A stretch of 33,074 nt of DNA, taken from IMG/VR virus record IMGVR_UViG_2737471830_000002; one strand, written 5' to 3'. Source of the DNA: a virus (Duplodnaviria > Heunggongvirae > Uroviricota > Caudoviricetes). Of this stretch, positions 1 through 33,074 are shown one piece after another. Below the pieces are notes generated by a model. It ran no database searches. It was given only the letters and a program-made list of their open reading frames with translations, and had not been told where the DNA came from. The translations under genes were made by a program, and so were the position numbers. The first letter of the stretch is position 1, and every line of letters starts with the position of its first letter.

Positions 1-1209
1 TTACCCATCAATCACACCGGGTCTGAAATCAAATACATTTGCATCCCATATAGTAAGATGAAATCTACAGTGATTCATCACTCCGGGAGCATGTTCCATA
101 TGAACAATTTTACTCATTTGAGGATGAGGCTGCGATTTTAATCTTATTAGAATGTCTCCAATTCCAGATGATATATTACCTGAAGATGTTGGTAAGCTTG
201 TGTCGCGAAAATGATAGGTTGAGAACCATGAAGATAAGTTTAAATCTAGTGAAGATATAAAGTTTAACTTATTTGTACCAACACCAATGGCATGAGCAAC
301 AGTAAAACCTGTTGAAGATACATCTATTTCATTAAAAATCAAAACTTCTTCATCAATTGAATTGCAATCTATAGAAAAACCATATCCTTCATCCATAACA
401 GGAGATGTAGCAACCTCTTGTTTTACTGCTCCCTGGCGGTTAAAAACATAGAATGGACCAAATTTTGTCTTTTGAGTTAACCTGTCAAGATTTGCTGGCG
501 AGGTATAGTATTTTGTACCTCTAATTGTTAATGCAATACGTGTGTATCCTCCTCCAGGGATATCGACAGTTATCCTCATTCCGTTTCCGATGACATCAGT
601 AAGAACGTTTTTAAATATCAACCCATCTATGTTGCTGCGGATAATGAACTCTACATCAGGGCCAATGTGCAACCGTTCCAGCAGTGAGACATCTATATTA
701 TGTGGTCTAGTAATTAAATACTTCCCTGAATTTACTACAAAAGAACCGTCTTTAAGCATATCATCAAGATAATCACTACACGATATATTACCAGTATTAT
801 CAGCCCCGTAAGATTTTAGATCCCCCCCAATGTATTGATAACCGTATGGAGAATGAAGTTGTTCCTTTAGTTGATCAGGGTCATACTTCAGCACATTCGG
901 AAAATAGAACTGCTGAGAACCGTACGCATCATATACAGCCATAGAATGGCCTTGCACGGTAACGAATTTGGCAATCTGTCCGTTATATACAGGATATCCG
1001 GCAGCGTTAATGATGATTGGCTGTGCAACAGGAACGTGAGAGCCGTCTTCGTTCTCCACATAAACCTGAATCTGGTTTTCAGGATTTACCGGGTCAGTGT
1101 CAATTTTACCGATATAAATTTTGCCATTGGCTACGGCTTTAAAAGAACGCGCCATAGTGAAGAGTTGCGAAGGCATGCTTACCACAACATTTGCGGTGAT
1201 ATCTGACAT
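1..1209 (-). CDS. Tailspike protein, 402 aa, P22-type head-binding N-terminal domain with a divergent short C-terminal domain
   Basis: N-terminus [46 protein letters not shown] closely matches the P22/Sf6/HK620 tailspike N-terminal domain; ATG at 1209 preceded by GGAG; stop codon occupies 1..3. Confidence 0.8.
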
Positions 1210-1680: not shown

Positions 1681-3678
1681 CTATTCTGACAACGCATCAG
1701 ACTTAGCCCCCTGCGTCAGAGCGTTAATTGCCTTTTGTGCCTGCTGCATTGCTTTCTCAAAGGCTGTTGATCCGCGTGGGGTGTTTGCCATTCGGAGCAT
1801 TGCATTTCTGAATGGTTCGCTCTCATAGGCGCGAGTAAGAAGTCCGTAGCTTACTGCTGCGCCAGTTGTCGCCGGGTTCATTGCCGTCCCATACCCGATA
1901 ATGAACGGGATGGTTTGCTGCCCTGTTGGTGTTGTTACTGCCGCTTTTGCTGCCTGCTGAGTGGACTGAAGGTAATTTTTCAAACCTTTCAGATAAGCAG
2001 CGTCCTGCCCCTTAAATGTGATGCCAGTCTGGCTTTGCAGGATGTTAAGCTGTCGAAGGAACTGGTCAGGGGATCCACCTGATTTCTCCATCGCCTTTCC
2101 AATGATGCCATTGCGCATTTGCGCCCTGCCAACACGACCAACTGAGTTATACAGCGTCTTAATTTCCGATTTGTTCTTGCTGAATAGCATGTTATTGACA
2201 ACTTCCGGCGTCAGATCGCCTTTCATGAGAACATTCTTCAGCCTGGTATTCTTTAGTTTCGCCGCTTCGTCAGCGTAGACGGCATTGGCCTGCTGATATT
2301 TACGGAGAGTATCGTTGCCAAGATTCTGACCAATGGCACCATTGATATCGTCGGTCATTGCCTTGTAAACGCGCTGAATGGCAGCATCGGAACGGTTTGG
2401 TAACACTGGTCGCTCCCCCTTCACGTCCATTCTGAACTGGCTGCGCAGATCGCTTAATTGCTTCAAATCCAGATTTACCGGACCATCAGGACCAGCATTG
2501 CGAACAAGCTCATCACGATAGGACTGAAGTTTTGAAATAGTCTCGTTATCAGCAACCTTACCAAGCTTCTGCAGGTTAGGTATTTCTGTATCAATCTGCT
2601 GAATTGCTCTTGCAGGCTGAATGTTTATTCCCGCCATAGCATTCTGAACCTGCTCCAGTCGATTTCCTGCAGCGCGACGAATTCCTGATGTTTTCGCTTT
2701 AAGGCTGTCAATAACAACCGCTGGATCATACTCACCGAATTTATCAGCAAATCTCTGAACCAACTGGCTTCTCGCTTCCTGTTGCGTTGCTCTCATTCCG
2801 CTTGTGCCAGCCAGGGGGATATTTTCTGCTGTCGTTTGCGCCATTTTTCCGACGCGGGAAGTAGGCTGTAACAGGTCTGTGGTGTGCAGAGGCACTCCTT
2901 CACGCTCTGCAAATCTGATAGTTTGCTGCGCTTCTGGTGCTATCGAACCACGAACACCACGATAAGCAGCACCTAATCCACGTCCGGCAGCGTTAATAGC
3001 ACCGCCAGCCAGCACACCAACGCCTAAATCGGTGGCGAGTGCTTCCGCATCATCTTTCGCACTGTTTGCAGCAAGTGATCCAACTGCGTTTTCTGCGAGA
3101 AGGCGAGTTGCCCCCTGAGCAATTCGACCAGCAAGTGTTGGTGCCTGTGTTGCCGCTCTCTCAACGCCAGCAGGAGTGAGGTAAGGCAATGCTTCAGCAA
3201 ATACCCTTCCCTCTGTCGTTTGTGGAGTCAGCGCGCCTTGCTGAAGGCCAAAGTCCTGCTCTAATCCCTGCGTTGTTACTCGTGGCGCTGGTTGATATGT
3301 ACCATCGCCAATGCCGAGTTTACCGCCAGCCCAAGCCGCCGCGCTTGTTACAGCATCTGCAACTGATGCAGGTATGTTTGCCACGTTCACGCCAGCCTGC
3401 ACCAGTCCGCGACCAGTCTCTTTCACTGCTTCACCAAGATCAGACATAAATCCACTTTGCTGTGGTTGTTGCTGTGCTACTGGTTGCTGTGTATCCACTG
3501 GCTGCACAGATGGCAATGGATAGGCAGCATAGAAAGCTTGCTTAGCCTGCTCTGCATTTTCTCCGGCTTGCGGGGCCACGACTTCATTGAAGTATTGCTC
3601 CTGAGCCTGCGCTTTTTGTTCTGGTGCTAACGCCTGATACTGTGGAGAGGCGATAACATCTTTCCATGCTTTAGCCAT
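1681..3678 (-). CDS. Ejection (injection) protein, P22 gp16 position
   Basis: 665-aa ORF, low-complexity Q/A-rich, last gene of the ejection-protein block by synteny with P22 (16-20-7-14-26-10-4). Confidence 0.6.
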   Translation of the reverse strand: MAKAWKDVIASPQYQALAPEQKAQAQEQYFNEVVAPQAGENAEQAKQAFYAAYPLPSVQPVDTQQPVAQQQPQQSGFMSDLGEAVKETGRGLVQAGVNVANIPASVADAVTSAAAWAGGKLGIGDGTYQPAPRVTTQGLEQDFGLQQGALTPQTTEGRVFAEALPYLTPAGVERAATQAPTLAGRIAQGATRLLAENAVGSLAANSAKDDAEALATDLGVGVLAGGAINAAGRGLGAAYRGVRGSIAPEAQQTIRFAEREGVPLHTTDLLQPTSRVGKMAQTTAENIPLAGTSGMRATQQEARSQLVQRFADKFGEYDPAVVIDSLKAKTSGIRRAAGNRLEQVQNAMAGINIQPARAIQQIDTEIPNLQKLGKVADNETISKLQSYRDELVRNAGPDGPVNLDLKQLSDLRSQFRMDVKGERPVLPNRSDAAIQRVYKAMTDDINGAIGQNLGNDTLRKYQQANAVYADEAAKLKNTRLKNVLMKGDLTPEVVNNMLFSKNKSEIKTLYNSVGRVGRAQMRNGIIGKAMEKSGGSPDQFLRQLNILQSQTGITFKGQDAAYLKGLKNYLQSTQQAAKAAVTTPTGQQTIPFIIGYGTAMNPATTGAAVSYGLLTRAYESEPFRNAMLRMANTPRGSTAFEKAMQQAQKAINALTQGAKSDALSE

Positions 3679-5072
3679 TAATCACCCCATAGTGAAGAAA
3701 AGTTACTGCTGGCTGCTGGCTGTGATACCTGTGCAGGTTGAGATTGCTGCCGCTGAGATTTACCAACATTAACGTTATATTGTTGGTTGTAATTGTTGGT
3801 GTATTCCTGAATCTCACGAATCGACTGCTGCATAGCCTCCGGGCTTGAATAGTCAACCTGCGGCATCCCCTGAAAATACATCTTCGCTTCTGCAACGGTG
3901 TTAATACCACTGGCCCCCATGTCCCTTGCTGCCGCCACACCCTGATTCTGCATTCTGCCCTGAATACGTTGTGCTGAGTTATATAACTGGCGCTGCTCTT
4001 TTCCTGTTAATCGGCTGCGAACATCAGCACCAATTGCCGGGTTACCTGCGCCGCCGGTCATTCCTGTCATGAAATCGAGAGCAGAAGCGTCTGCATTTGC
4101 GATCGCGTCGATATCCTTCTTCATGGCATAGTTTTGTGCTGATGCAGACGATGTTGCAGGCGCTGCGATTGAACTGGCAGGAACGCGAACCATATTCCCC
4201 TCGTTGTCGATGCCTTCGTAGAACGCATTTGCCCCAGCGCCGTGAAGTTTCCCGCCAACCGTTACAGTTCTGCCATCTGATAACTGAACTGTACGCTCAT
4301 CATTCCCAGCGGTTCCTCTTGTTGACGCTCGCTGCATTGCCAAATCCTGCCCGCGTCGCGCAGTAGAAGCAGATAAATCCTGACCGCGCATCGTGATGTT
4401 CTGACCTCGTGCTGTTAGCGCCTCTCCAGCCTGATTGCTGCGGATTGTCTCTGCAAGTTTTCCGCGATCAATCTCACGCCCAACGATTCTGTCTTGCGCC
4501 TGAAAATATTGTTCTGGACCAAGAGCAGCCATTCCAAGGTGATCAACAAACTCTGTGAAACCTTGTGGATTTTGCTGATACATTTTCGCCACATCCAGAG
4601 GGTCTACTCCGGCACGAGTAAGCTCAGATGAGTTGTTCTGCAACCATGACATCATGACTTCTAGAGATGAAGCTGCGAGTCTGACACTTGCTGCCAGTGT
4701 ACCGACAGTGGAACGCTGGTCTTCATCGACAAATTTCATGCCGTTTCTTACAGCGTCAAACTGCTCAGGATACTGTGATGCCAGTTTTCGCATTGCATCG
4801 CGGTCACCAGATGTATATGCATCAGCATAAGCCTGCTGAAACTCTTGCTGTCGCTTCTGCTGATCCATCTGCTTATACATATCCATGACAGATGAAATGC
4901 CCTGCAAAGCCTGCAAGCCAACGTTATTACGTCCTGAACGCTCCATCTCGTTATTCTGTCGAATGTATGCAAGCGTGGCGTCTGCATCACTTGCTCTTGG
5001 AGCGTTGGAGTTCATGCCGCCTAACCCGGCAAGAAGCGCGCCTGAATTACCAGCCTGTTGCCATGTAGCCAA
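3678..5072 (-). CDS. Ejection protein, P22 gp20 position
   Basis: 464-aa ORF; size and synteny; start overlaps the downstream gene stop. Confidence 0.6.
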
Positions 5073-5084
5073 GAGACACCTCCA

Positions 5085-5738
5085 TTAAAACAGTGAACCA
5101 AGAAGGCCGACGCCAGCACCAATTGCTGTACCCCAACCAGGCATGATTGCAGTACCTGCAGCTGCACCTGCCGCAGCTCCACCCAAGGCGCTCTGAAATC
5201 CTGATGGTTTATTCGCATTAGCCGCAGATGCTGCCGCCTGCTGTTGATACAATTGGCTGACGTTGTTGGCATAGTTCTGCCCGGCGTTTGCCTGACCTGT
5301 AAGAGCGCCAAGGCCGATATTTGCCAGATTGTTGTAGTTGTTCATCTGACCTGACAGCCAGTTTTGACCGAGTGTAGGTGCGATTGCTGCTAACTGGTTT
5401 CCTGTTGCTGTAGAGCCTAATCCACCCGTTGCCTCTGCTGCTGCCAGACTCTGGTAACGCGCCTGCCCTGCAAGGTCTTTGTACTGCTGGGAGTTGTAAT
5501 ACTGGTTAAGCGCCTGACCTTGCCCCTGAAGAGAGGAAAGATTCTGCAACTGTGATACGTACTGCTGAGCGAGTGGCGTGAACGGTGCAAGGTTTTGCAT
5601 GTTCGTCTGCCACATTTCACGCTGCAGTTCGATGCCCTTTTCAGTTGCGCGTGCCTGCTCTTTTGCTCCGCTATCACCGCCACCTTTGCAGTACACAGCT
5701 TTGCTGAGGTGCTTATTGGCAATCTGGAAAATTAACAT
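5085..5738 (-). CDS. Ejection protein, P22 gp7 position
   Basis: 217-aa Gly/Ala/Gln-rich ORF; synteny. Confidence 0.6.
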   Translation of the reverse strand: MLIFQIANKHLSKAVYCKGGGDSGAKEQARATEKGIELQREMWQTNMQNLAPFTPLAQQYVSQLQNLSSLQGQGQALNQYYNSQQYKDLAGQARYQSLAAAEATGGLGSTATGNQLAAIAPTLGQNWLSGQMNNYNNLANIGLGALTGQANAGQNYANNVSQLYQQQAAASAANANKPSGFQSALGGAAAGAAAGTAIMPGWGTAIGAGVGLLGSLF

Positions 5739-6195
5739 TCTTTAGCTCCTCGTATTTTGAGCGCGGTAACTGATAAATCGTGATGCCTACAGGCTTTCCA
5801 TTGCTGGTATAAGCATCATCAAGGTGACCAACACGGGTAGCGCCAAGCAAACGGATAATTGCCCGTCCGTATTTCGTTGTGTCAGGAACCATAGTGATGC
5901 TGTTAAGGAATGGTGAGTTTTCGAGAAGCCATTTGCAGAATAATCGATGCCCTTGCAGTGCATATTCACCACGGAATCCGGGGTCGTACACCGCATGGCA
6001 TTCAACAACGCTATGCCAGAAGTGACGCACTTCATGAACTCCAGCCAGCACTAATCCTTCGTAGATGCCGAGGTATACCGCATCAGGCTTGATGTAGTAT
6101 TTATCTCCACTGTCTACGATATTTCCCGTGTTTGCCGGGTTGTTGAGGAATTCTGCAAGCTTCACCGGATTATCGATGAGCTTTATTTCCATCAC
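5713..6195 (-). CDS. P22 gp14-position protein (head completion / DNA stabilization)
   Basis: 160-aa ORF between the gp7-like and tail needle genes; synteny only. Confidence 0.5.
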
Positions 6196-7040
6196 TGCTC
6201 CGCAATGATTTTGATGGTTGTGGCAGTAAACGCCGCACCATTTGACTGAATGGTTAACGTGCTGCCATTTGTGGCAAGAAAGCCGTCTTTATCCACGCTG
6301 AAGAACGTAGCTAACAAGATGTTATCAGTTGTTGTCGCCGAGTTGCGACTGCTTACCAGTGTGTCAGGAACAGAGCCGGAAAAGGTTAGCTGCATTGACC
6401 TGTTGGCGGTTCCGCTGGGCCACGTCCCGACGATCGACAGCTTGAAGAACAAGGTTTTGTTCTCGTTGAACACAACCATCTTGTTGTTAACGGTGTCGAA
6501 GAATGGTGCCAACGTGCCGGATGACGGCGTGAGCGTTTTCAGCAGGCTAACAAGGTTGATCGGCGCTGTCGGGATGGTTACAGATACGCCAGAGTAAACA
6601 ACCTCTGACTTCTTGCGAGTAGTGGCATACTCCAGAGCATCGATGCGCGTTTCATGGTCTGAAACCTGCGATTCCAGCGACTGAACTCTGGTATCAAGCG
6701 ACGCAATATCGCTTTCATTCTTAGCGATTCGCGTTTCATGTTCCTGAAGAGTTAATTCTGCCTGGCTGATTCGCTCCTCATGATTAACAAGCGTTGCTTC
6801 CGCAGCAGAAATTCGCTGCTCATGGTCAGCGAGAATCACATCCTGCTCATCGTTCCTGACTTGTGCGTCATAAGCGCCCTGTCCGGCCTCGTTGGCCTTG
6901 TTAGCCACGTTACCAACATCAGTGCCCTGTGCGATAACGTAAAGCAGATACGACTGCGAGAAGATATTGCGTGGAAGAACTGATGTATCGATCCGCGTAG
7001 CCTGAATGATTACCGGCACATTGAGATTCGAATCCGCCAT
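6192..7040 (-). CDS. Tail needle protein (P22 gp26-like) with extended C-terminal domain
   Basis: N-terminus [43 protein letters not shown]...[16 protein letters not shown] matches P22 gp26; coiled-coil heptads follow; 282 aa. Confidence 0.8.
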
Positions 7041-8458
7041 TACTCAATCCTTATCTGAGCGCCAGACAGAGTGACAGGTGACTTCGTGATAACGCGCAAT
7101 TTGAAGCCGACATTTTTCCTGATGCGCCCGACTCGCTTCCACAAAACACGTTTGTCGTAAACGAACGGTTCATTCTGTTCAATCATCTGCTCACGTCCGT
7201 AATTTATGCCGTCAGTGGTTGCAGAGAGAAAAAGGCGGTCAGCGTACTGAGCAACACCCGTCGATGATTCCACCTCCAGATCAAAGCATCTGGCGTTATC
7301 TGCTTTGAAGAGTGGAGTAAACAGCAGGTGTTCCTGTTGAAGCCCATACTGACTGCTGATATCGAACTGCAATTTCCCGGTCACCGATTCCAGCTTATCG
7401 CCGCACGTTATCTGATTGCCTTCGTAAATGAAGTCGATAGCGCGGTACACATCGTCATACAGGCCTGTTTTCAGCACACACCATTGCGGACCATTGGCGC
7501 TTGAAGATGCGTCGTACACGAGAACATGGCGAGGAAGATGGATAACCAGCAATTCATGAGCATCAAAACGCAGCGATTCCATTACGCCATCAGCCAGTTC
7601 ATCAGCAGTGTAGGAGCGTAGTATTTTCTCAATGCTCGCGCTGGCGATTGGTGATACCTGACCGGAGCCGATGATATATACAGACGGCGCACCTGTTGCC
7701 GGATTGCTGATGAACGCATACGAATCAGCAAACGGCGTTTTGCAGTAAGTCCCGGCAATGCCTTTCTGCACCATCAGCGATGGCTGTGCGACATACAAAG
7801 CAGCACCAACTGTGGTTGCACCAGTCAGGGAGAAATATTCAATCGTCGATGAGCCAAAGCAGACGATGAAGTCTCGCCATGTTCCGATGCCGATGATGCC
7901 GTCAGGCTGTGATTCTGCCCGATATTGTGCGCTGTAGCGGTCAGGATGCGATTCGTCTTCAAGATCAGTGATAAACCATGAATCAGTACCGTCTTTTGAC
8001 CACGCATAACGCCCACGTAAGCGCGTAATGTCACGAACAGAACCTAGCTCATACTGCGTAAATCCACTGTCTGTAGGCCAGTTTGAGACGGTTTTAACCG
8101 TGCCATCATAGCGATACTCGACCAGTTGACCATTAACGCCTACCGCCTGTGATGTCCGACCATGCGCCATTGATACACGACCACTTCCGTCGACGTCACC
8201 GACTTCGCTTTCGCCTTTGTAGAGCTTGCCGCCACACACGCGATAAACAGCACTCTGCGCCATGTTGTACTCGACGCCTCGAGATATACCGTTCACATCA
8301 GAACGTTTGGCAATGCCCGGGAATGAGCGAAGATATCCGCTGCTGTTCAGGATTTCTTTGGGTGTAGCCAACATATTCACTGGCAGATAGTCGATATAGT
8401 CGGCGTTTCGAAAGTCTTTGCCGACACCTTTCATAAGCGGAAGTTGCTGAATCGGCAT
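7040..8458 (-). CDS. Tail hub protein (P22 gp10-like)
   Basis: 472-aa ORF, same length as P22 gp10, between gp26-like and gp4-like genes. Confidence 0.7.
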
Positions 8459-11810: not shown

Positions 11811-13976
11811 TTATTGAGGTGTCTCGGCTACTCCGCCGGAGGGGATTTGAACTTGACGCATAAGATTCGCGAAATCCATGCGTTGTGAATGAGTCTGGTC
11901 TGCATCTTTAAGAAGCAGCTCAGCGTTAGCGCGAGCGTCTTTGCTGCGCTGTTGCTGGAATTGACCTACGAGCTTGAGGTACTCACGCAGTTCTGCCTGC
12001 TTGTCGAGGTCCATATTGTTGAAGATTTCTGCAATCTTCGCGGCGTTGAGTTGGTTTTGGGCTTCAACCTTGGCAGCTTCAACCTGAATCTGCGCCTGTT
12101 GGTTCTCTGCCTTGAGCAATTCAGCCTGACCTTGCAGAAGGATGCCCTGCGCCTGAATTTGCTCTGCTGATGGCTGCTGCGGCTGTTGTTGTGCCTGCTG
12201 CACCATCTCCATCTCTTCAGGTGTTTCTGGTTTCTTCAGCCCCATCATCACCAGTTGCTTGTTCGCGTACTCTCGCATCATCTCGACGCCTTTACCGTCA
12301 AGCAGCGTGAAGTATTGCAGCATCAGCATCTGGAACTCTGGAGTACCTTGCGGAACCTTGGTGAGTAACTCCTGAATCTCTGCGCGGTTCTGTTCCTTCA
12401 TACTCTGGAAGGATGGTCCAACGTCTGTATAGCACTCATAGCGACCGCGAATGTCGTTGAGTGTGACCACATTACCGGACTGGTAATCTACAACTTGCGC
12501 GTAGAGTTGAACGTCTTTCTCGCTACCATCTTCAAGTGTCAGCGTTACATGACGAGGAACATCATAAATATCGTTGACCATTGAGGCATAAATCTCGCCA
12601 TCACGTCGCATTGCGGTAGCCAGGTTATCCTGAAACACGTATGTCTCAAGGTCTGCCCGCATGTTCAGTTGATTGACGGTATCGAAAGCGACCTGACCAT
12701 TTGCCGCCTGCGCATCCACGCCAAGACTAGCCACCTCTTTCACTGCGTTGGTGGCAGCCTCAAGCATGTAAGCGTTGGCTTGCGGCACTTCAGGGTTTTC
12801 CATGTAGGAGATTGGACCAATCGGCAGGTCGTTACCGTTTTCATCGGTCTTGTTCTGCAGATAGTACGGATAGTCATCATTTCCACCGTACATGTATTCG
12901 TAGCCTTCGATTTGCTCAGGGAAGAAGGTCGGTTTCTTCTTCGGTGAACGAGCAACGATATCGGCGTTGAACGACATGATCATGTTACGAAGGCGTTGAC
13001 CGTCTTTCGTCAGCCTTACCACTCCCTCGTAGCACTCCTTGTCACCAGCGAATGACCATTCTCCATACACTGGAACGATTGGGATATGCTCTCCAGCTAT
13101 CTTCTCGCGGTCTTTCAGTATCTGCGTGCAGGTGATGATCGACTTATACACACGCCGACGCTTGACCTTACGCTCTGCTACCTTAATGAATCCACGATTA
13201 GCCAGGTCGTCGATGACGTCTTTGATATCCTGCTGGTAATAGCTGACCGGCTCACCTGTCAGCGGGTCGCGGTAGATGAAGACTTTCTCTTTCTTCTCTT
13301 CGACCTCGTAATACTCAGCGACGTAGACGACATCATTCGATACCCACGGAAACAGCCATGTATCGTTCGGATTCTGGAAAGATGGCAAGGTGTCCGGATC
13401 AATACCGTAATCCTCTGCGAACTCTTTCCAGCCATTGCGCGACAAGGCGTTAATCACCGTGCAGTGCTTAGCGTCGCTCTTATCCATCTGCTTGCTGTTG
13501 GCGTCCCATATGACGTGTGAGCAGGCTTCATGAATTGGCAGGCGTCGAATTACCTGATTGTTGCTTGTTGGATCGTTGTCTTCGTACTGCGTGACCAGAC
13601 GCCATGCACCAACGCCGGACTCTATCTGCTCACGAACGCCAACGTTAACGGCAATTTTTGCCGTGTTATGGCGCATATCAGTACGATACATCCCCATCAA
13701 CACATCGGCTGCATCAGGATTAGCACCGTCTTTTGGTCGGAAGAGAACGTCGATAGGGTTCCGGCGCATCTCTGCGACCAACTTCCTGACCACCGGGCGA
13801 ACAACATCGAATTGTCCGCGATATTGCAGGGTGGTGTAGTTTGATAGCCAGTCATCCCATTGCGACACTCGGCTAAAATACAGGTCATTTGTCGCCTCGG
13901 TTCTGGCTTCATCGCTCGCCATCCAGTCCGCGTCAAACTTACACAGAATGGAATTGAGTCTGTTTTCGTCGGCCAT
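11811..13976 (-). CDS. Portal protein (P22 gp1-like)
   Basis: 721 aa, between terminase and scaffold; C-terminal Q-rich coiled-coil barrel region typical of P22 portal. Confidence 0.85.
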
Positions 13977-15475
13977 TTAAGTTCTCCGTGCGATGGGCCT
14001 GATTGGGGCTGGTATCTTTTTCTCTTTTGGTTTTTTGATGTCCCGCATCATTTTGGCGAAGCGGCGCATCATGTATGCATAGCGAACGGCTGAGAGAACG
14101 TCGTCGTTAAGCTTGACGATTTTCCCGTTTTCATCACGGTGATAGAGGCGGAACTCCTCAAAGAATGGCTCACATGTGTTGAATACTTTGAAGCGACCAT
14201 CAAGCATCATGTCGCGCAATTCAGTGATGCCTGGCTCAACAGCGTTACCGCCATCAGGCCATGTCGCATGCTCCTGCAGCATCATAAAACCAGCATCTGC
14301 ATACTGCCCTTTGAGCTGCTCACCGCCGCCCTTCTCGTGCTGGTTTCCGTCATGAGGCCATGCTGTTGGCACTTTATGCGCCCATGATTTAACAGCTCCC
14401 CATGCCTGAACGGCTGTTTTTTCTTTCGCCTTCCACACGCGTGAAACGTAGATTGTGTCTGCGTCCTTATCCCACCAAAGCTGAACCTGCGCCTGCGGGT
14501 GATCCCATCCGAAATCCATCCCGCCAATTACGTAGAAGTGATCAGGACACTCGAACGGCTGACACTTAATCGTCTCTTCCGGTATCTGGAAGATTCGACC
14601 ACTACCCATCGTAGGAATACCGCGAGCACGCGCCTCTCTCTCATGCTCAGGATAGGATGCGATGATTTGCTCTTTCTGCTCGTCGGTGTAGTGTTCAGCG
14701 TCATAGATGGTCATGTTGACCACTTTCTGAGACTTGCTGGGATTCTTCAGGAACTTGGTAACAACGTCAGACATCCCCATCAGCGGGGTAAACGTCAGAA
14801 TTGAGAATTGACCGTATTTGTTGGTACGGGTAAGGCCTTCGCCATAAATGCTGTATGGTGGTTCTTCGTCAAACCACACGCCGTGGATTGTGTCACCCTG
14901 CCAGCGAGCACGGCCTTGCGAGTATGGTTTGAAGTAGCAGATTGAAATACCATCTTCAACGCCATCAGCCGTGTGATGCTTAACCAGAAGGTGATCAACA
15001 AGGTTCGGAAAGAAAGGAGACTTCTTCCAGCTAATGATGTCTTCTTTCGGTATGGAACCGTAGCCTGGCTCATCATTCTCTTCGATACGACCACACAGGA
15101 TGCGTTGAGTCGTTTTGGTTACAGTCTCGTTTGTCTCGCCACCAATCCAGAAGACAACAGGCTCATAGAAACGCTTACCTTTCCACTCTCCGCCATATTT
15201 ACCATCAGCAGGATATCCTTTTGTTCCCGGATAAGCCCGGTAAGGTGAAACGCGACTTCGGCAGCACCAGTAAATGACTTACCAAGCTGGTTACCAGCCA
15301 TAAAACAGCGCTCTGGATAGTCATGCCCGGCGTCGATGAACTCACGCTGTTTGCTGTATGGCGTAAATTCATATAGCAGGTGTGTGTTCCGGTAGTTATC
15401 TTCTTCTTCGAGTAGCTCGAGCAATTCGATTTGCTCTTCGTCGCTCAGGTTATCAAGAATCGCGTCCAGTTCCAC
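13977..15475 (-). pseudogene. Terminase large subunit (P22 gp2-like) interrupted by a 1-nt frameshift near 15226..15245
   Basis: N-terminal ORF (15119..15475) carries Walker A AGNQLGKS then turns to nonsense and stops; the adjacent frame reads RAYPGTKGYPADGKYGGEWKGKRFYEPVVFWIGGETNETV... continuous with the 13977..14879 C-terminal ORF. Span is 1499 nt, one short of 500 codons. Confidence 0.8.
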
Positions 15476-15947
15476 GGTTGAATAGCTCCTTGATACGAGA
15501 GCGCCGCTTATCGCGATCTCCCTTATCAGGTGTCACGTCTTCAACTTGCGACTGCTCTTTGAGGCCCAAATCACGGGCGATGATGTTAGCGTTGAGAAGG
15601 TCAGCGGCTGCGCCAGAAAATTTCTGGTCGTAGATGATGTCTTCCGCTCGTGATGTGACGTCAGAAAAACCTTCCATTGACCGGAAGGTTCCCCATGTTT
15701 GCCTGGTGATATCAAGGAAGGTACACAATCCTGAAATAGTCATGGCTCGCATCTTAGGGACATTAGCCTTAATTATTTCTCCCTGATATGAAAATACCTT
15801 ACCCTCCCATAGCGGGTTATCATCAGCCCACTCGAAGTATTCACAACAAGCAGCCCACAGCGCCTCAGGCGATTCGAATTTAGGATTTCGCCCATGACTA
15901 CTGCGGGCCTCCCAAAATCGGTTGCCCTTTGGTGCTGCCATATTCAT
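15453..15947 (-). CDS. Terminase small subunit (P22 gp3-like)
   Basis: [38 protein letters not shown] matches P22 gp3; overlaps the large-subunit start. Confidence 0.8.
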
Positions 15948-15948
15948 C

Positions 15949-16140
15949 TCACTTAATTGTCATTTCTGGTCGTTGGCTCTTCATGCTTTCAATCAATGAC
16001 TGCTTCAGCAATTCGAGTGTGCCAATCGCCTCACATACACTGATTTCACCATAATCATGGATGACGCTTTCCAGCCGCTCGTATAGCTCTTGAGTAATTG
16101 GGAATTTCTTCTCCTTACCCAAATTGATTACGCGGCTCAC
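15949..16140 (-). CDS. Hypothetical small protein (63 aa)
   Basis: ORF tightly packed between upstream small ORF and terminase small subunit. Confidence 0.45.
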
Positions 16141-16141
16141 A

Positions 16142-16384
16142 TCATGCTCCGGTAGTGAACAGGTCTAACGCTTCCTTCGATTTACGCACCGCTTCGATAG
16201 TGCGAGATGTGAAGTCTGGATTTGCACCGCCATCGTTGTAGTGCAACTTGAACAATTCCAGTTTCAGCTGGTCAGCCCCAATGAATGCAAACGCTTCCTC
16301 TGCCGCTGAATTGTTCTTAGATAGCAGTCGGTAAATTTCTAACTTGAATTTCTGTTCTTCAGTCATGGGAATAATCTCTGCCAT
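16142..16384 (-). CDS. Hypothetical small protein (80 aa)
   Basis: ORF with a 1-nt gap to the next gene; a GGGATA-N10-TATCCC hairpin plus T-run lies just upstream. Confidence 0.45.
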   Translation of the reverse strand: MAEIIPMTEEQKFKLEIYRLLSKNNSAAEEAFAFIGADQLKLELFKLHYNDGGANPDFTSRTIEAVRKSKEALDLFTTGA

Positions 16385-16641
16385 TGTTGGCTCCGTTTAT
16401 CCGTTAAAAGGGATATCAGTTAAGTTATCCCGTGTAGGGTATAAGCCATTGTCGAGACCACTCATTGAATGGCCTCTGCAATAACCGATGTCTTTCCATC
16501 AGTCCGCCACCACAAAGAATCTTTTTTTGCCATAAGGCTGGAGGTTCATCTTTCAGTGGCTGCCAGTGTTATTTCCCCACTTTCTGGCTTGGGTTGTGTC
16601 GCTGTACTGCCGTAATGCAAGAACTGGATTAACCAGCAGAA

Positions 16642-17172
16642 TCACACCATTCCGGGCAAATACATTTGCACTTCATTTGCCGCTCTCTGACGTGCAACAT
16701 GAAGCAATCTTTTTCGCCCACCAACGCCCCACTTAGCCATTTGGCTTGCGCACTGGCTTATCGCTTTGGTTTCAGTATTGATGATGTGATCGATTCTATT
16801 CAGACGGGACATTGCGCCAACGCCGAGACGGACAACCGTTTTGAAAACTTCATAAACTTCGATTTCAAATTCCGGCTTAATCCATGCTGCATATCTGATT
16901 GCCAGAAGTTCAACACCCCACACACCTGGTTCTGCACCACCTTTGATTATTTTAAGTGGTTGAATTTGTTCCAAAGTGCTTTTTTGCACTTTGGCCTCCA
17001 GTGCTTTTATGAAGCGTTTTATCTGCGCGCTACGCAAAAACTGGCTTGGGCGCTGTTGCTCTGTAGCCTCTCCATTTGCAACTGCTGCTGCATGGAGATC
17101 GTTTAAGTTGTAGCGTCCATCCTCATCAACACGAACGGACACACCATTGACAATAACTGTTGGGTACTTCAT
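16642..17172 (-). CDS. KilA-N domain protein
   Basis: N-terminus VIVNGVSVRVDEDGRYNLNDLHAAA is typical of KilA-N/APSES-type domains; 176 aa. Confidence 0.6.
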   Translation of the reverse strand: MKYPTVIVNGVSVRVDEDGRYNLNDLHAAAVANGEATEQQRPSQFLRSAQIKRFIKALEAKVQKSTLEQIQPLKIIKGGAEPGVWGVELLAIRYAAWIKPEFEIEVYEVFKTVVRLGVGAMSRLNRIDHIINTETKAISQCASQMAKWGVGGRKRLLHVARQRAANEVQMYLPGMV

Positions 17173-17319
17173 CAGTGATTACCTTTTAGTGATGAACCTT
17201 GTCACACAGGATTCCGGCCCACAGAAAGGCACCGATCACCAAACCGGCATCCTCAAGGGTCATCCTGAAAGGTTCTGTGTTCAGAAGTCGCGCGTGTGAA
17301 GCGCGTTTACTGCGGACAT

Positions 17320-17342
17320 AAAAAAGCCCCGCATCGCGAGGC
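17320..17342 (-). terminator. Intrinsic terminator downstream of the lysis cassette
   Basis: Minus-strand RNA GCCUCGC-GAU-GCGGGGC (one G-U pair) followed by UUUUUU, directly after the Rz stop. Confidence 0.5.
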
Positions 17343-17374
17343 TCATTAAATGGACTTTGTGATTTGCAAAAAAA

Positions 17375-17812
17375 TTATTTCAGGCATTGCGTCCTGATGT
17401 ATTCCTGCAGATAGTTAACCTGCGCGGTTATCTTGTCGATTCCACTTCGGAGACGGTAATAATTGAGTTCAGCATCTGCTGTAAGTCCTGGGCTTTCTCC
17501 ATCGCCCATGCTGCTGGCTCCGGTCGTTGACTTTGCACAGGTGGCGGCGACTTGCAGGCGCTTACGACCAGCAGAAACATCAGCACGGAGACTTTCGATA
17601 GTCGCGTTAGCATCAGCAAGCTCCTTTGTGTATCTGGCGTCAAGTTCTGCTACATCACGTTGACGCTTCTGCATGTCAGCGATTGTGGATGTGGCTTTAT
17701 CGCGCTGCTCTTTGTAGGCGATGGCGTTATCACGGTAATGATTAACAGCCCATGACAGGCAGACGATGATGCAGATAACCAGAGCGGAGATAATCGCAGT
17801 TACTCTGCTCAT
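17375..17812 (-). CDS. Rz: Rz i-spanin
   Basis: 145 aa with N-terminal TM segment and coiled coil; follows R; contains an embedded +1-frame lipoprotein ORF. Confidence 0.8.
17428..17613 (-). CDS. Rz1: Rz1 o-spanin lipoprotein, embedded in Rz
   Basis: Signal peptide with lipobox VVSAC followed by a proline-rich segment ([12 protein letters not shown]); entirely within Rz in another frame. Confidence 0.65.
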
Positions 17813-18285
17813 ACCTCAATCTCTCTGACCGTTCCGCCAGCTTCTTTGAATTTTGCAATCAGGCTGTCAGCCTTATGCTCGAACTGACCATAACCAGCCC
17901 CCGGCAGTGAAGCCCAGATATTGCTGCAACGGTCGATTGCCTGACGAATATCACCGCGGTCAATCATCGGTAAAGCGCCACGCTCTTTAATCTGTTGCAA
18001 TGCCACAGCGTCCTGGCTTTTCGGAGAGAAGTCTTTCAGGCCAAGCTGCTTACGATAGGCATCCCACCAACGGGAAAGAAGCTGGTAACGTCCGGCTGCT
18101 GTTGATTTGAGTTTTGGGTTTAGCGTGACAAGTTTGCGAGGGTGATCGGAGTAATCGGTAAATAGCTCTCCGCCTACAATGACGTCATAACCATGATTTC
18201 TGGTTTTCTGACGTCCGTTATCAGTTCCCTCCGACCACGCCAGCATATCGAGGAACGCCTTACGTTGATTATTGATTTCCACCAT
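17809..18285 (-). CDS. R: Endolysin, lambda R-type lytic transglycosylase
   Basis: 158 aa, [39 protein letters not shown]..., near-identical to lambda R. Confidence 0.95.
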
Positions 18286-18592
18286 CTTCTACTCCGGCTT
18301 TTTTAGCAGCGAAGCGTTTGATAAGCGAACCAATCGAGTCAGTACCGATGTAGCCGATGAACACGCTCGTTATATAAGCGAGATTGCTACTTAGTCCGGC
18401 GAAGTCGAGAAGGTCACGAATGAACCAGGCGATAATGGCGCACATCGTTGCGTCGATTACTGTTTTTGTAAACGCACCGCCATTATATCTGCCGCGAAGG
18501 TACGCCATTGCAAACGCAAGGATTGCCCCGATGCCTTGTTCCTTTGCCGCGAGAATGGCGGCTAACAGGTCATGTTTTTCTGGCATCTTCAT
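18269..18592 (-). CDS. S: Holin/antiholin, lambda S-type
   Basis: 107 aa, [39 protein letters not shown]..., with MKM dual-start motif; near-identical to lambda S. Confidence 0.95.
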
Positions 18593-18883
18593 GTCTTACC
18601 CCCAATAAGGGGATTTGCTCTATTTAATTAGGAATAAGGTCGATTACTGATAGAACAAATCCAGGCTACTGTGTTTAGTAATCAGATTTGTTCGTGACCG
18701 ATATGCACGGGCAAAACGGCAGGAGGTTGTTAGCGCAGCCTCTTGCCACCCGCTTTCACGAAGCCAGCCATTACGCTGGTTTTCTTTTATGCAAAGCACA
18801 CCGCACCGTAGCCACAGCGGATAAGGTGATTATTTTTGTCTGTCTGGTATTTGGTTTGATGTGCTTTCAGAAAGGTCGTGATT

Positions 18884-18918
18884 AAAACGCAAAAAGCCCC
18901 GAGCTATTAACTCAGGGC
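18884..18918 (-). terminator. tR'-like intrinsic terminator shortly downstream of pR'
   Basis: Minus-strand hairpin GCCCUGAG-uuaauag-CUCGGGGC followed by UUUUUGCGUUUU, about 30 to 60 nt downstream of the predicted pR' start. Confidence 0.55.
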
Positions 18919-18947
18919 TTTATTTAACGAGTGCATTTATCCATCGT

Positions 18948-18984
18948 TGTGTCAAATTTACCCAACTTTATTCAAAAAGTCAAT
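18948..18984 (-). promoter_or_regulatory. Late promoter pR' with Q-utilization region
   Basis: Minus-strand TTGACT (18984..18979), 18-bp spacer, TAAATT (18960..18955); the stretch TTGACTTTTTGAATAAAGTTGGGTAAATTTGAC closely matches lambda pR'. Confidence 0.6.
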
Positions 18985-19025
18985 ATCATGCCGTAAAGAT
19001 GTTGCCATCCGTGGCAATCATGCCG

Positions 19026-19649
19026 CTAACGTGTGACCGCATTCAAAATATTGTCTGCGATTGACTCTTCCTTGTGGCATTGCACCACCAGAGCGTCATA
19101 CAGCGGCTTAACAGTGCGTGACCAGGTGGGTTGAGTAAGGTTTGGGATTAGCATCGTTACAGCGCGATATGCGGCGCTTGCTGGCATTCTTGAATAGCCG
19201 ACACCTTTGCATCTTCCGCATTCTTTCTCAACAACTCTCCCCCACTGCTCTGTTTTTGCTATATCAACCGCACGACCTGTACCGTGGCAATCTCTGCATC
19301 TTGCGCCCGGCGTCGCGGCACTACGGCAATAATCCGCATAAGCGAATGTTGCGAGTACTTGCAGTACCTTTGCCTTAGTATTTCCTTCGAGCTTTGCCAC
19401 ACCACGGTATTTCCCCGATACCTTGTGTGCAAATTGCATCAGATAGTTGATAGCCTTTTGTTTGTCGTTCTGGCTGAGTTCATGCTTACCGCAGAATGCA
19501 GCCATTCCGAATCCGGCTTGTGATTGCGCCATCCCCATAGCAGCCATCACATCAGTACCGGAAAGAGAGTCAGAAGCCGTAGCCCGTGGTGAGTCGCTCA
19601 TCATCGGGCTTTTTGGCGAATGAAATTTAGCTACGCTTTCGAGTCTCAT
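19026..19649 (-). CDS. Q: Late gene antiterminator Q (lambda-type)
   Basis: 207 aa, MRLESVAKFHSPKSPMMSDSPRATASDSLSG...CRDCHGTGRAVD...CGRCKGVGYS, near-identical to lambda Q. Confidence 0.9.
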   Translation of the reverse strand: MRLESVAKFHSPKSPMMSDSPRATASDSLSGTDVMAAMGMAQSQAGFGMAAFCGKHELSQNDKQKAINYLMQFAHKVSGKYRGVAKLEGNTKAKVLQVLATFAYADYCRSAATPGARCRDCHGTGRAVDIAKTEQWGRVVEKECGRCKGVGYSRMPASAAYRAVTMLIPNLTQPTWSRTVKPLYDALVVQCHKEESIADNILNAVTR

Positions 19650-19834
19650 GGCCTTCCCCTTTTGCCCTGTTTGACCATCAGGACGCCGTTAACTATTACG
19701 TGACGCTCGCCTTTGCTGTCTCGGTTGTACTTGAGCACTGTTCCTCTTGCGCAGGAAAGCATCCTCGCCACTTCGGTCTGATTGCCTCGTGTCTGGATAA
19801 GAAGCTCTGGTATCGTTTGAATTGTGGCGTTCAT
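19646..19834 (-). CDS. ninH: NinH-like protein
   Basis: 62 aa; YGNQTEVARMLSCARGTVLKY...VNGVLMV resembles lambda NinH. Confidence 0.65.
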   Translation of the reverse strand: MNATIQTIPELLIQTRGNQTEVARMLSCARGTVLKYNRDSKGERHVIVNGVLMVKQGKRGRP

Positions 19835-20193
19835 ACGTTCTCCAGTTCGGTGATTTTTATTCCAAGCCTTCCGCCTGGTACTTTCACACCACGAATTACG
19901 CGAATGTCATCGAATTGCTCGTCGTCTTCCGCAAATCCGGCGTGGATAAGGGAGTCGAGTAAACCTTTCAGGATGTTATCGAGGTCGCGGCGGCGGGAGT
20001 CTGGAACGTCTGCGATGACTTTGATGCGGAGTCGTGATTTGGTGAAAATGTCTAACTTAAGTTGGCGGATGATTTGCTGAACGTCTTTTCGGTATTTCTG
20101 GCCTTTATCGCTGATGTAGTATTGGCTTCCCCGTCTTCGCCAGTAGGTATTCACCGATGGCGGGTATGGAAGCACAAACTGATATTCGTTCAT
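19831..20193 (-). CDS. rusA: RusA-family Holliday junction resolvase
   Basis: 120 aa; LPYPPSVN...DSRRRDLDNILKGLLDSL...GGRLGIKITE matches the RusA catalytic core. Confidence 0.8.
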   Translation of the reverse strand: MNEYQFVLPYPPSVNTYWRRRGSQYYISDKGQKYRKDVQQIIRQLKLDIFTKSRLRIKVIADVPDSRRRDLDNILKGLLDSLIHAGFAEDDEQFDDIRVIRGVKVPGGRLGIKITELENV

Positions 20194-20480
20194 GACTTAA
20201 TCTTCCCCTCCTTCAGCAGTATCGCCTGCGTCCTGATCACGCCTTCGAGGTGGTAAAGTCTGGCGTCTTTGTTGTCGAGGTTATGGGTGCGTCGGTCGAT
20301 TTCATCGTGACACGCGCTACAAGCCCATGCGCCGATCAGGTCGTCAGGCTTCATTCCCGTTCCGCAAATTCCAGCCATCCGGTAATGTGCCAGAACTGTA
20401 GTTTCAGGATTGCCATTGCATACGCCGTAAATACGTACCTGGCATTCTCTGCCGCGTGCTTCTTTGCGTAGGTTAGCCAT
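20190..20480 (-). CDS. YbcO-like (DUF1364) protein
   Basis: 96 aa, Cys-rich; lies immediately upstream of rusA as ybcO does in the DLP12 prophage. Confidence 0.55.
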   Translation of the reverse strand: MANLRKEARGRECQVRIYGVCNGNPETTVLAHYRMAGICGTGMKPDDLIGAWACSACHDEIDRRTHNLDNKDARLYHLEGVIRTQAILLKEGKIKS

Positions 20481-21202
20481 TAAGCAGCCTCCCCTGTTAC
20501 TTTCAGCATTCCGTTATCGAGAAGCTTTCTGGTCAGCCACTGTTGACCACGCCCGGTGATTTTTGTGGTGAACGATATCTGTATTCCGTGATTTGTGTTG
20601 ACCGCTGTTTCTTTCACTGTGAAATAGCCGCGATCCATATATTCCTGCATTGGCACATTGCGCCGGGAACCTGAAGCAATAAGGATTTTGTGATCGCGCA
20701 TCCATGCAAACAGTTTGTTTGGACCAATACCAACAACCTTTGCATAGTTTCCAATCAAAATTCCGCTGGCCTCGCCAACGCGATCGGCAAACTCAACTTT
20801 AGGTGCGGCAATTGCGAGCTGGTTTTCCAGTTGCATTTTCTGCTCAGCAAGATCAGCAGCAAGGCGCAACGCTTCTGGTAGCGTTTTGGGGATATTAACC
20901 GCAGTTTCTTCAAGCTCTCGCCAACGGTCAACAAGACGAGCGGTGAATTCCGGCGACAACTGGGCAACAACGACAATACTGTCTCGCTTACCTTGTTCGC
21001 CTTCGAAGACGTAATGCTCGTACTGAACATTGAACCCTAAGTTATTGATTCTTTCGAAAACCTCAATTTGAGGAAGCCGGATAACACCATTTTTAGCCAG
21101 CGTTTCGATGGTACGCTTCACATTGTCATGACGCTTACCAACCAACTCAGCGATTTCAATGCTTGTCATTTTGATGGCATTGCCATTTATTAACTCATTC
21201 AT
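20480..21202 (-). CDS. Rha/Roi-like phage regulatory protein with antirepressor (KilA-C/ANT) C-terminal domain
   Basis: 240 aa; N-terminal HTH-like segment MTSIEIAELVGKRHDNVKRTIETLAK; located in the nin region where roi sits in HK022/HK97. Confidence 0.6.
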   Translation of the reverse strand: MNELINGNAIKMTSIEIAELVGKRHDNVKRTIETLAKNGVIRLPQIEVFERINNLGFNVQYEHYVFEGEQGKRDSIVVVAQLSPEFTARLVDRWRELEETAVNIPKTLPEALRLAADLAEQKMQLENQLAIAAPKVEFADRVGEASGILIGNYAKVVGIGPNKLFAWMRDHKILIASGSRRNVPMQEYMDRGYFTVKETAVNTNHGIQISFTTKITGRGQQWLTRKLLDNGMLKVTGEAA

Positions 21203-31100: not shown

Positions 31101-31301
31101 ATGCAACACGAACTACAGCCTGATTCACTGGTTGATTTGAAATTCATCATGGCTGATACTGGCTTTGGTAAAACCTTCATCTACGACCGGATTAAGTCCG
31201 GCGACCTGCCAAAAGCCAAAGTTATCCACGGGCGAGCAAGATGGTTATATCGTGACCATTGTGAATTCAAAAATAAGCTCTTAAGCCGCGCTAATGGGTA
31301 A
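31101..31301 (+). CDS. torI: Excisionase / recombination directionality factor, AlpA/TorI family
   Basis: 66 aa, MQHELQPDSLVDLKFIMADTGFGKTFIYDRIKSGDLPKAKVIHGRARWLYRDHCEFKNKLL; winged-helix AlpA-type; matches E. coli TorI as recalled. Confidence 0.75.
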   Translation: MQHELQPDSLVDLKFIMADTGFGKTFIYDRIKSGDLPKAKVIHGRARWLYRDHCEFKNKLLSRANG

Positions 31302-31826: not shown

Positions 31827-33074
31827 CTATATTGCTGAAGGTACAGGCGTTTCCATCACTATTTGCTCGCGTTTTTTACTCAGGAAGAAAATGCCAAATA
31901 GCAACATCATGCAGACAATACCCGAAATTGCGAAGAAAACTGTCTGGTAGCCTGCGTGGTCAAAGAGTATCCCAGTCGGCGTTGAAAGCAGCACAATCCC
32001 AAGCGAACTGGCAATTTGAAAACCAATCAGAAAGATCGTCGACGACAGGCGCTTATCAAAGTTTGCCACGCTGTATTTGAAGACGGATATGACACAAAGT
32101 GGAACCTCAATGGCATGTAACAGCTTCACTAATGAAATAATCCAGGGGTTAACGAACAGCGCGCAGGAAAGGATACGCAACGCCATAATCACAACACCGA
32201 TAAGTAATGCATTTTTTGGCCCTACCCGATTCACAAAGAACGGAATAATCGCCATGCACAGCGCTTCGAGTACCACCTGGAATGAGTTGAGATAACCATA
32301 CAGGCGCGTTCCTACATCGTGTGATTCGAATAAACCTGCATAAAAGACAGGAAAAAGTTGTTGATCAAAAATGTTATAGAAAGACCACGTCCCAACAATA
32401 AATATGACGAAAACCCAGAAGTTTCGATCCTTGAAAACTGCGATAAAATCCTCTTTTTTTACCCCTCCCGCATCCGCCGCTACGCACTGGTGATCCTTAT
32501 CTTTAAAACACATGTTGATCATCATAAATACAGCGCCAAATAGCGAGACCAACCAGAAGTTGATATGGGGACTGATACTAAAAAATATGCCGGCAAAGAA
32601 CGCGCCAATAGCATAGCCAAAAGATCCCCAGGCGCGCGCTGTTCCATATTCGAAATGAAAATTTCGCGCCATTTTTTCGGTGAAGCTGTCAAGCAAACCG
32701 CATCCCGCCAGATACCCCAGGCCAAAAAAGAGCGCCCCCAGAATTAGACCTACAGAAAAATTGCTTTGCAGTAACGGTTCATAAACGTAAATCATAAACG
32801 GTCCGGTCAAGACCAGGATAAAACTCATACACCAGATGAGCGGTTTCTTCAGACCGAGTTTATCCTGAACGATGCCGTAGAACATCATAAATAGAATGCT
32901 GGTAAACTGGTTGACCGAATAAAGTGTACCTAATTCCGTCCCTGTCAACCCTAGATGTCCTTTCAGCCAAATAGCGTATAACGACCACCACAGCGACCAG
33001 GAAATAAAAAAGAGAAATGAGTAACTGGATGCAAAACGATAGTACGCATTTCTGAATGGAATATTCAGTGCCAT
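31827..33074 (-). CDS. cscB: LacY-family oligosaccharide:H+ symporter, probably sucrose permease CscB
   Basis: 415 aa, 12-TM MFS; aligns along its length with LacY; the start codon is the last three bases of the window. Confidence 0.8.
   Translation of the reverse strand: MALNIPFRNAYYRFASSYSFLFFISWSLWWSLYAIWLKGHLGLTGTELGTLYSVNQFTSILFMMFYGIVQDKLGLKKPLIWCMSFILVLTGPFMIYVYEPLLQSNFSVGLILGALFFGLGYLAGCGLLDSFTEKMARNFHFEYGTARAWGSFGYAIGAFFAGIFFSISPHINFWLVSLFGAVFMMINMCFKDKDHQCVAADAGGVKKEDFIAVFKDRNFWVFVIFIVGTWSFYNIFDQQLFPVFYAGLFESHDVGTRLYGYLNSFQVVLEALCMAIIPFFVNRVGPKNALLIGVVIMALRILSCALFVNPWIISLVKLLHAIEVPLCVISVFKYSVANFDKRLSSTIFLIGFQIASSLGIVLLSTPTGILFDHAGYQTVFFAISGIVCMMLLFGIFFLSKKREQIVMETPVPSAI

Follow-up and report, generated by a model that had tools for sequence, protein, structure and literature searches.

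Analysis of the window (the whole stretch of DNA studied here, 33,074 nt, located on a 270-kb E. coli contig) revealed the gene order terS-terL-portal. The middle gene of this cluster, terL, is a close homolog of the large terminase gene of P22 (gp2) and, judged by its reading frames, a pseudogene (Table 1). Searching the Pfam profiles showed Terminase_6N to be split between two open reading frames (ORFs), with profile positions 1 to 25 in an ORF of 118 aa and positions 101 to 214 in an ORF of 300 aa, and the second ORF also carries Terminase_6C (PF17289) (E = 1e-28). The intact TerL of a sister prophage matched the P22 gp2 nuclease domain structure 4DKW with residues 289 to 497 (E = 8e-127) and the P22 TerL N-terminal peptide in 6VI1 with residues 1 to 33. 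P22 gp2 consists of 499 aa, with the ATPase domain at residues 38 to 284 and the nuclease domain at residues 313 to 482 (PMC11728703). Comparison with these domain limits places a break at codon 81 just past the P-loop and therefore within the ATPase fold.

Table 1. Features of the window relevant to terL and to the state of the prophage (coordinates are those of the window)
Feature	Coordinates	Strand	Basis or remark
Tailspike gene, truncated	1..1209	-	402 aa versus 618-aa homolog
portal (P22 gp1 family), intact, directly downstream of terL	11811..13976	-	Homology
terL (P22 gp2-type large terminase), predicted pseudogene, complete	13977..15475	-	1499 nt versus 1500 nt in intact homologs
terL remainder in the shifted frame, residues 82 to 499	13977..15233	-	Rest of ATPase fold and RNaseH-like nuclease domain
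N-terminal fragment ORF, 118 aa	15119..15475	-	80 native and 38 out-of-frame residues, TAA
1-nt deletion site, G absent (CCGGGC[G]TTATCC)	15234..15235	-	Alignment with homologs and a sister prophage
terS (small terminase, gp3 family), intact, overlaps terL start	15453..15947	-	100% identity over 162 aa; PF16677 GP3_package
torI-type excisionase, right prophage end (KplE1/HK620-type recombination module)	31101..31301	+	Homologous-region annotation; 66-aa gene in sister L042
Host cscB (LacY-family sucrose permease)	31827..33074	-	PF01306, E = 3e-193; annotated cscB / oligosaccharide MFS transporter

The locus shares several properties with P22 gp2. The intact sister copy likewise has 499 aa, the terS-terL-portal synteny is the same, and both an ATPase domain with the Walker A motif and an RNaseH-like nuclease domain are present in the window gene. 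Unlike gp2, the window copy lacks one nucleotide in codon 81, so that no such protein is encoded; no uninterrupted frame of about 499 codons, as expected of a functional terminase, connects the two domains. The intact P22-like relatives IME10, HZ41, and Dewey and the EC3 and GB089 prophages show 97 to 98% terL DNA identity to the window and a collinear late operon, but their terL has 1500 nt. Relative to them, the window is a mosaic with other ejection-protein, needle, replication, and tailspike modules.

The first-pass annotation of this stretch had described terL as split by a 1-nt frameshift, with a Walker A-containing frame that ends in nonsense and a following frame that carries the terminase sequence into the 300-aa ORF. 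Both the frames and the arithmetic (1499 versus 1500 nt) were reproduced. In a tblastn search with the intact 499-aa TerL of the EC3 prophage as the query, two HSPs were obtained on the window. Residues 1 to 80 corresponded to positions 15475..15236 in frame -2 (98.75% identity), and residues 82 to 499 corresponded to positions 15233..13980 in frame -1 (99.3% identity). Because both halves match TerL with about 99% identity (E = 0), the split is not a chance pattern. Translation in three frames revealed that frame 0 is open from the GTG start annotated in the homologs (VELDAIL...), passes the Walker A motif GNQLGKS, and reads ...AGNQLGKSFTGAAEVAFHLTG before the break; after ...AFHLTG it continues out of frame until the TAA stop at 15121..15119. 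The following frame reads ...YPGTKGYPADGKYGG..., contains ...YPGTKGYPADGKYGGEWKGKRFYEPVVFWIGGETNE..., and is uninterrupted until the stop at 13977.

Alignment to intact P22-like terminase genes, the check that the first-pass annotation had proposed, identified a single missing G. In the DNA alignment with three homologs of 1500 nt, including those of phage Dewey and E. coli GB089, the G is absent at alignment column 242 (CCGGGC-TTATCC versus CCGGGCGTTATCC). An otherwise identical sister prophage pins the loss between window positions 15235 and 15234, which is inside the interval of 15226..15245 and the sequence context given originally. In the GenBank record, in which the JUCY01000001.1 coordinate equals the window coordinate plus 14, the site corresponds to positions 15248/15249. 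Loss of the G changes codon 81 from CGT (Arg) to CTT and shifts the frame from there. The lost G stood between C and T, outside any homopolymer.

The native part of the 118-aa fragment comprises the N-terminal hairpin region and the Walker A motif (residues 61 to 67). This product is without the rest of the ATPase fold, from the Walker B-like VWFDEE onward, and without the whole RNaseH-like headful nuclease domain; VWFDEE sits in the shifted remainder of terL. Only 13977..14879 (300 aa, GTG start) of this remainder can be called as an ORF. The earliest in-frame ATG, GTG, or TTG past the shift is the GTG at 14879, which corresponds to residue 198, and residues 82 to 197 can therefore not be made in the right frame. 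Any restart product from 14879 would be without the Walker A motif. In the GenBank annotation, the 118-aa half is listed as hypothetical protein PU31_00075 (KHI47521.1) and the 300-aa half as "terminase" (KHI47520.1). A single frameshifted pseudogene would be the correct annotation for both.

The exact 118-aa product was found on two contigs, JUCY01000001.1 of the E. coli assembly GCA_000797775.1 (100% identity to the window over 12.4 kb) and a contig of the Logan assembly of SRR2239604 (100% identity over 8.3 kb); SRR2239604 may be the read set behind the GenBank assembly, in which case the two assemblies are not biologically independent. Judged by its length, the Logan contig of SRR2239604 (17.5 kb) is unbroken from window position 17463 to 24 nt past window position 1, and the Logan contigs of sister isolates reach the same 24 nt past this position. 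Sister isolates were found by anchoring on rarer prophage proteins (gp7-like and DnaB-like); the DUF2560 protein was unsuitable as an anchor because it is too widespread (4394 blocks). Four sister loci were aligned with the window: GCA_046223515.1 (L040; 15,738 nt aligned, 0 mismatches, 1 gap), the 4.88-Mb contig of GCA_014105875.1 (L039; 15,738 nt, 1 mismatch, 1 gap), Logan SRR8606462 (L043; 15,359 nt, 0 mismatches, 1 gap), and Logan SRR23498928 (L042; 21,020 nt, 1 mismatch, 1 gap). All four carry an intact 499-aa terL. In L040 and L039, the gap was mapped to the terL G at window position 15234/15235, and L042 and L043 show one gap each. No indel other than the terL G was seen between the window and the sister prophages over about 33 kb. 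Since the sisters have an intact terL and only 0 or 1 further differences, the deletion is private and very recent. Within this nearly clonal set, as aligned here, it is private to one strain (plus one run).

The rest of the prophage is well preserved. In the tblastn comparison, all other genes that have an EC3 prophage homolog were full length, each in a single frame. These genes include those for the ejection proteins, gp10, gp4, coat, scaffold, portal, and terS as well as the lysis cassette, Q, the nin genes, cII, cro, cI, erf, ssb, and others. Full-length genes are retained for repressor, replication, lysis, capsid, portal, and ejection functions. The host gene cscB adjoins the torI end, and the element is therefore integrated in the chromosome. 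Deletion of the integrase gene was considered and rejected: in related genomes with this module, intS is located next to tRNA-Arg at the opposite prophage end, beyond the tailspike and off the contig, and in this strain the integrase, like the distal side of the tailspike, is on other contigs. The window stops exactly at an ORF boundary on either side (stop codon, 1..3; start codon, 33072..33074); gene coordinates were evidently used to cut it, and only 14 nt separate its left end from the end of the contig. A KilA-N domain gene (176 aa; 16642..17172, minus strand) is positioned between the lysis cassette and DUF2560/terS. Related prophages carry Rha/ANT, gp49-like, T5orf172, or HNH genes in the same slot, which looks like a variable moron slot by its position.

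Apart from terL, a lesion was identified in the tailspike gene. The truncated product matches residues 1 to 402 of the 618-residue homolog and keeps the head-binding domain and part of the receptor-binding domain. An ORF of 418 aa called at this site had no exact match, and the actual product begins at the second Met and has 402 aa. In sister L039, an IS3-family transposase gene is located directly at the truncation point, and tailspike residues 395 to 618 resume behind it. The IS3-family element of this sister (about 1.18 kb, within 14530..17583 of the L039 locus) lies exactly at the truncation point. It is rare in complete E. coli genomes, in which the best match has 84.6% identity and two genomes cover most of it. 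The sequence GGTAA at window positions 1 to 5 had been considered as the left end of IS1; the longer sister contigs, with different sequence and the IS3-family transposase, ruled this out. Repetition of the IS3-family element is presumably the reason why the draft contig breaks off 14 nt beyond window position 1. The same 402-aa tailspike was found on 14 contigs from several samples. Judged by this distribution, the tailspike lesion is the older one and common to the whole lineage, and the terL lesion is newer and private. Since the tailspike is truncated lineage-wide, the prophage was probably noninfectious before terL was hit.

To place the terL lesion within the phage family, homologs in public genomes were surveyed. 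All phage-collection matches listed with full query coverage span 1500 nt. In a spread sample of 60 matches from complete E. coli genomes, the net length of terL was intact in 57; the other 3 were two partial gene copies, whose neighboring features suggest deletion remnants, and one weak partial match. Several independent lesions were found in other public assemblies by comparing contigs with an identical 300-aa C-terminal ORF and one contig recovered via the portal protein. Codons 181, 193, and 360 were found as nonsense codons, 1-nt insertions were found at terL nt 206 and at nt 468, and an internal deletion as well as 5' deletions were also seen. The terL of one further genome, no107, annotated as "frameshifted," has a 1-nt deletion at nt 168. 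A search with the 118-aa fragment revealed further out-of-frame N-terminal fragments, some of which switch frame near residues 32, 73, 74, and 78, whereas a number of others switch after K86. At least five distinct 118-aa TerL N-terminal fragments from other assemblies switch right after K86 (P0002, P0003, P0004, P0006, P0007, P0032), which corresponds to a 1-nt loss in the CAAAAGG tract at the window equivalent of 15223..15217, 12 to 18 nt downstream of the present deletion. This cluster could represent a small slippage hot spot or a recurrent homopolymer sequencing error. In this family, terL pseudogenes of every type are scattered, and in this comparison the present site is not singled out.

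Taken together, a genuine and very recent loss of function is very probable, caused in one E. coli strain (GCA_000797775.1) by the loss of one G from terL codon 81 of its P22-like (Lederbergvirus-type) prophage. In P22, TerL translocates DNA into procapsids and cuts the concatemer. By analogy with P22 biology, induction without TerL would yield empty procapsids without packaged DNA, and generalized transduction would not occur. The truncation of the tailspike at residue 402 of 618 in the whole clonal lineage was the earlier lesion. Once it was present, infectivity would no longer have been selectable, and the terL frameshift would be a second hit and the next step of neutral decay. The element combines chromosomal integration with inactivation of essential virion genes (terL and tailspike), as in defective prophages. 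The first-pass annotation had read the locus as a likely packaging-defective prophage; the terL frameshift supports this reading, and the tailspike truncation, which it had missed, adds a second lesion.

The window element resembles the argW defective prophages KplE1/CPS-53 and the HK620/Sf6-type module in the torI-type excisionase at one end, and, like KplE1/CPS-53, it is a chromosomal prophage with lost virion functions. Only a small remnant is left of KplE1, whereas the genome of the window element is nearly complete, with only two lesions identified in it. Pseudogenization of terL is a routine, well-known phenomenon, and the case has little significance beyond annotation. Its broken terL marks the prophage as unable to package DNA, and it should be left out when active phages or generalized transducers of this strain are tallied. 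With its sisters, it offers a clean, datable case of stepwise decay, with the tailspike truncated first, terL frameshifted next, and further deletions in other members of the clone.

A sequencing or consensus error, in which terL of the strain really has 1500 nt and the missing G is an artifact of the draft assembly, was the alternative named in the first-pass annotation. It has been weakened and is now unlikely, with a small part of the probability left to it. The deletion is confined to a single 2014-era draft assembly and a single run, and the G is present in all sisters with an otherwise identical prophage, a pattern that an isolated consensus error would also produce. Moreover, GCA_046223515.1, with its intact terL and a contig of 270,261 versus 270,078 nt, could be the same or a nearly identical strain. 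On the other side, the independent k-mer assembly by Logan of SRR2239604 contains the same deletion on its unbroken contig, and the allele therefore dominates in the reads of this run. The lack of any other indel relative to the sisters indicates that the assembly is not indel-prone, and this result and the nonhomopolymer site together make a sequencing artifact unlikely. Recoding would leave the mutation real and its effect partial: -1 slippage past the deletion would still give full-length TerL, and packaging would be reduced rather than abolished. The required shift is indeed -1, and A_AAG, which is mildly shift-prone in E. coli, occurs 11 nt past the deletion, in the correct register and ahead of the frame-0 stop. 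Single-tRNA slippage on CAA_AAG (15223..15218) is the candidate event and would produce a 499-aa TerL that differs only at residues 81 to 85 (RYPGT to LIREQ). However, no X_XXY_YYZ heptamer is present from the deletion to the stop, the predicted folding of the 86 nt downstream is not better than that of shuffled sequences (z = 0.08), and the homologs and sister prophages have one uninterrupted ORF, i.e., the two-frame layout is not conserved. Unstimulated slippage would yield a percent level at most of a protein with five substituted residues beside the P-loop, and recoding is thus considered extremely unlikely. Programmed frameshifting was rejected because of the missing heptamer, the missing stimulatory structure, and the single-frame length of 57 of the 60 homologs. 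The programmed -1 frameshifts of lambda G/GT and dnaX are similar to the window terL in using two overlapping frames for one protein; unlike them, the window terL is without a slippery heptamer, stimulatory structure, and conservation, which points to a mutation and not to a recoding signal. It is very unlikely that the lesion is leaky or still active in a broader sense, either through -1 slippage at CAA_AAG or through interference of a stable 118-aa fragment, with its N-terminal hairpin and P-loop, with the terminase of a superinfecting P22-like phage; if it were, the broken terL would still affect packaging or phage exclusion.

Selection for the loss of TerL, e.g., with packaging stopped and lysis or lysogenic-conversion functions kept, has an almost negligible probability. 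The intact regulatory, lysis, and capsid genes agree with such a scenario, as do the gtrA/gtrB-type O-antigen modification genes beside the integrase in L039, a possible reason for the host to keep the element, and the several unrelated assemblies with terL frameshifts close by, after K86. In contrast, the lesion is present in only one strain of the clone, and the lesions in other prophages are scattered over terL and belong to every type, as neutral decay predicts. The cluster after K86 coincides with the longest homopolymer of the stretch (CAAAAGG), and the clustering at 90% identity by which its proteins were found lets through only shifts close to this site. The preferred explanation is a recent, genuine loss of terL function in a prophage whose tailspike was already truncated.

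Some further features were seen in other members of the clone. In L039, positions 17688..20654 contain genes for a GtrA-like protein, a GT2 glycosyltransferase (gtrB-like), and a 367-aa protein between the tailspike and the integrase. Its gene content suggests a cassette for O-antigen modification (serotype conversion), which could account for the host keeping a defective prophage. Some contigs with the 402-aa tailspike product have further internal deletions. Logan SRR27242403 (L022) is without about 2403..4604 and 5832..7103 of the window, and its contig contains a 395-aa gene in which the gp20-type (Inj_translocase) and gp16 Pfam domains occur together. Logan SRR26893037 (L025) is without about 3570..6900 of the window, and a gene at the edge of this locus combines LacY and gp10 Pfam domains. 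From these deletions it follows that several decay stages of one prophage have been sampled in the public data.
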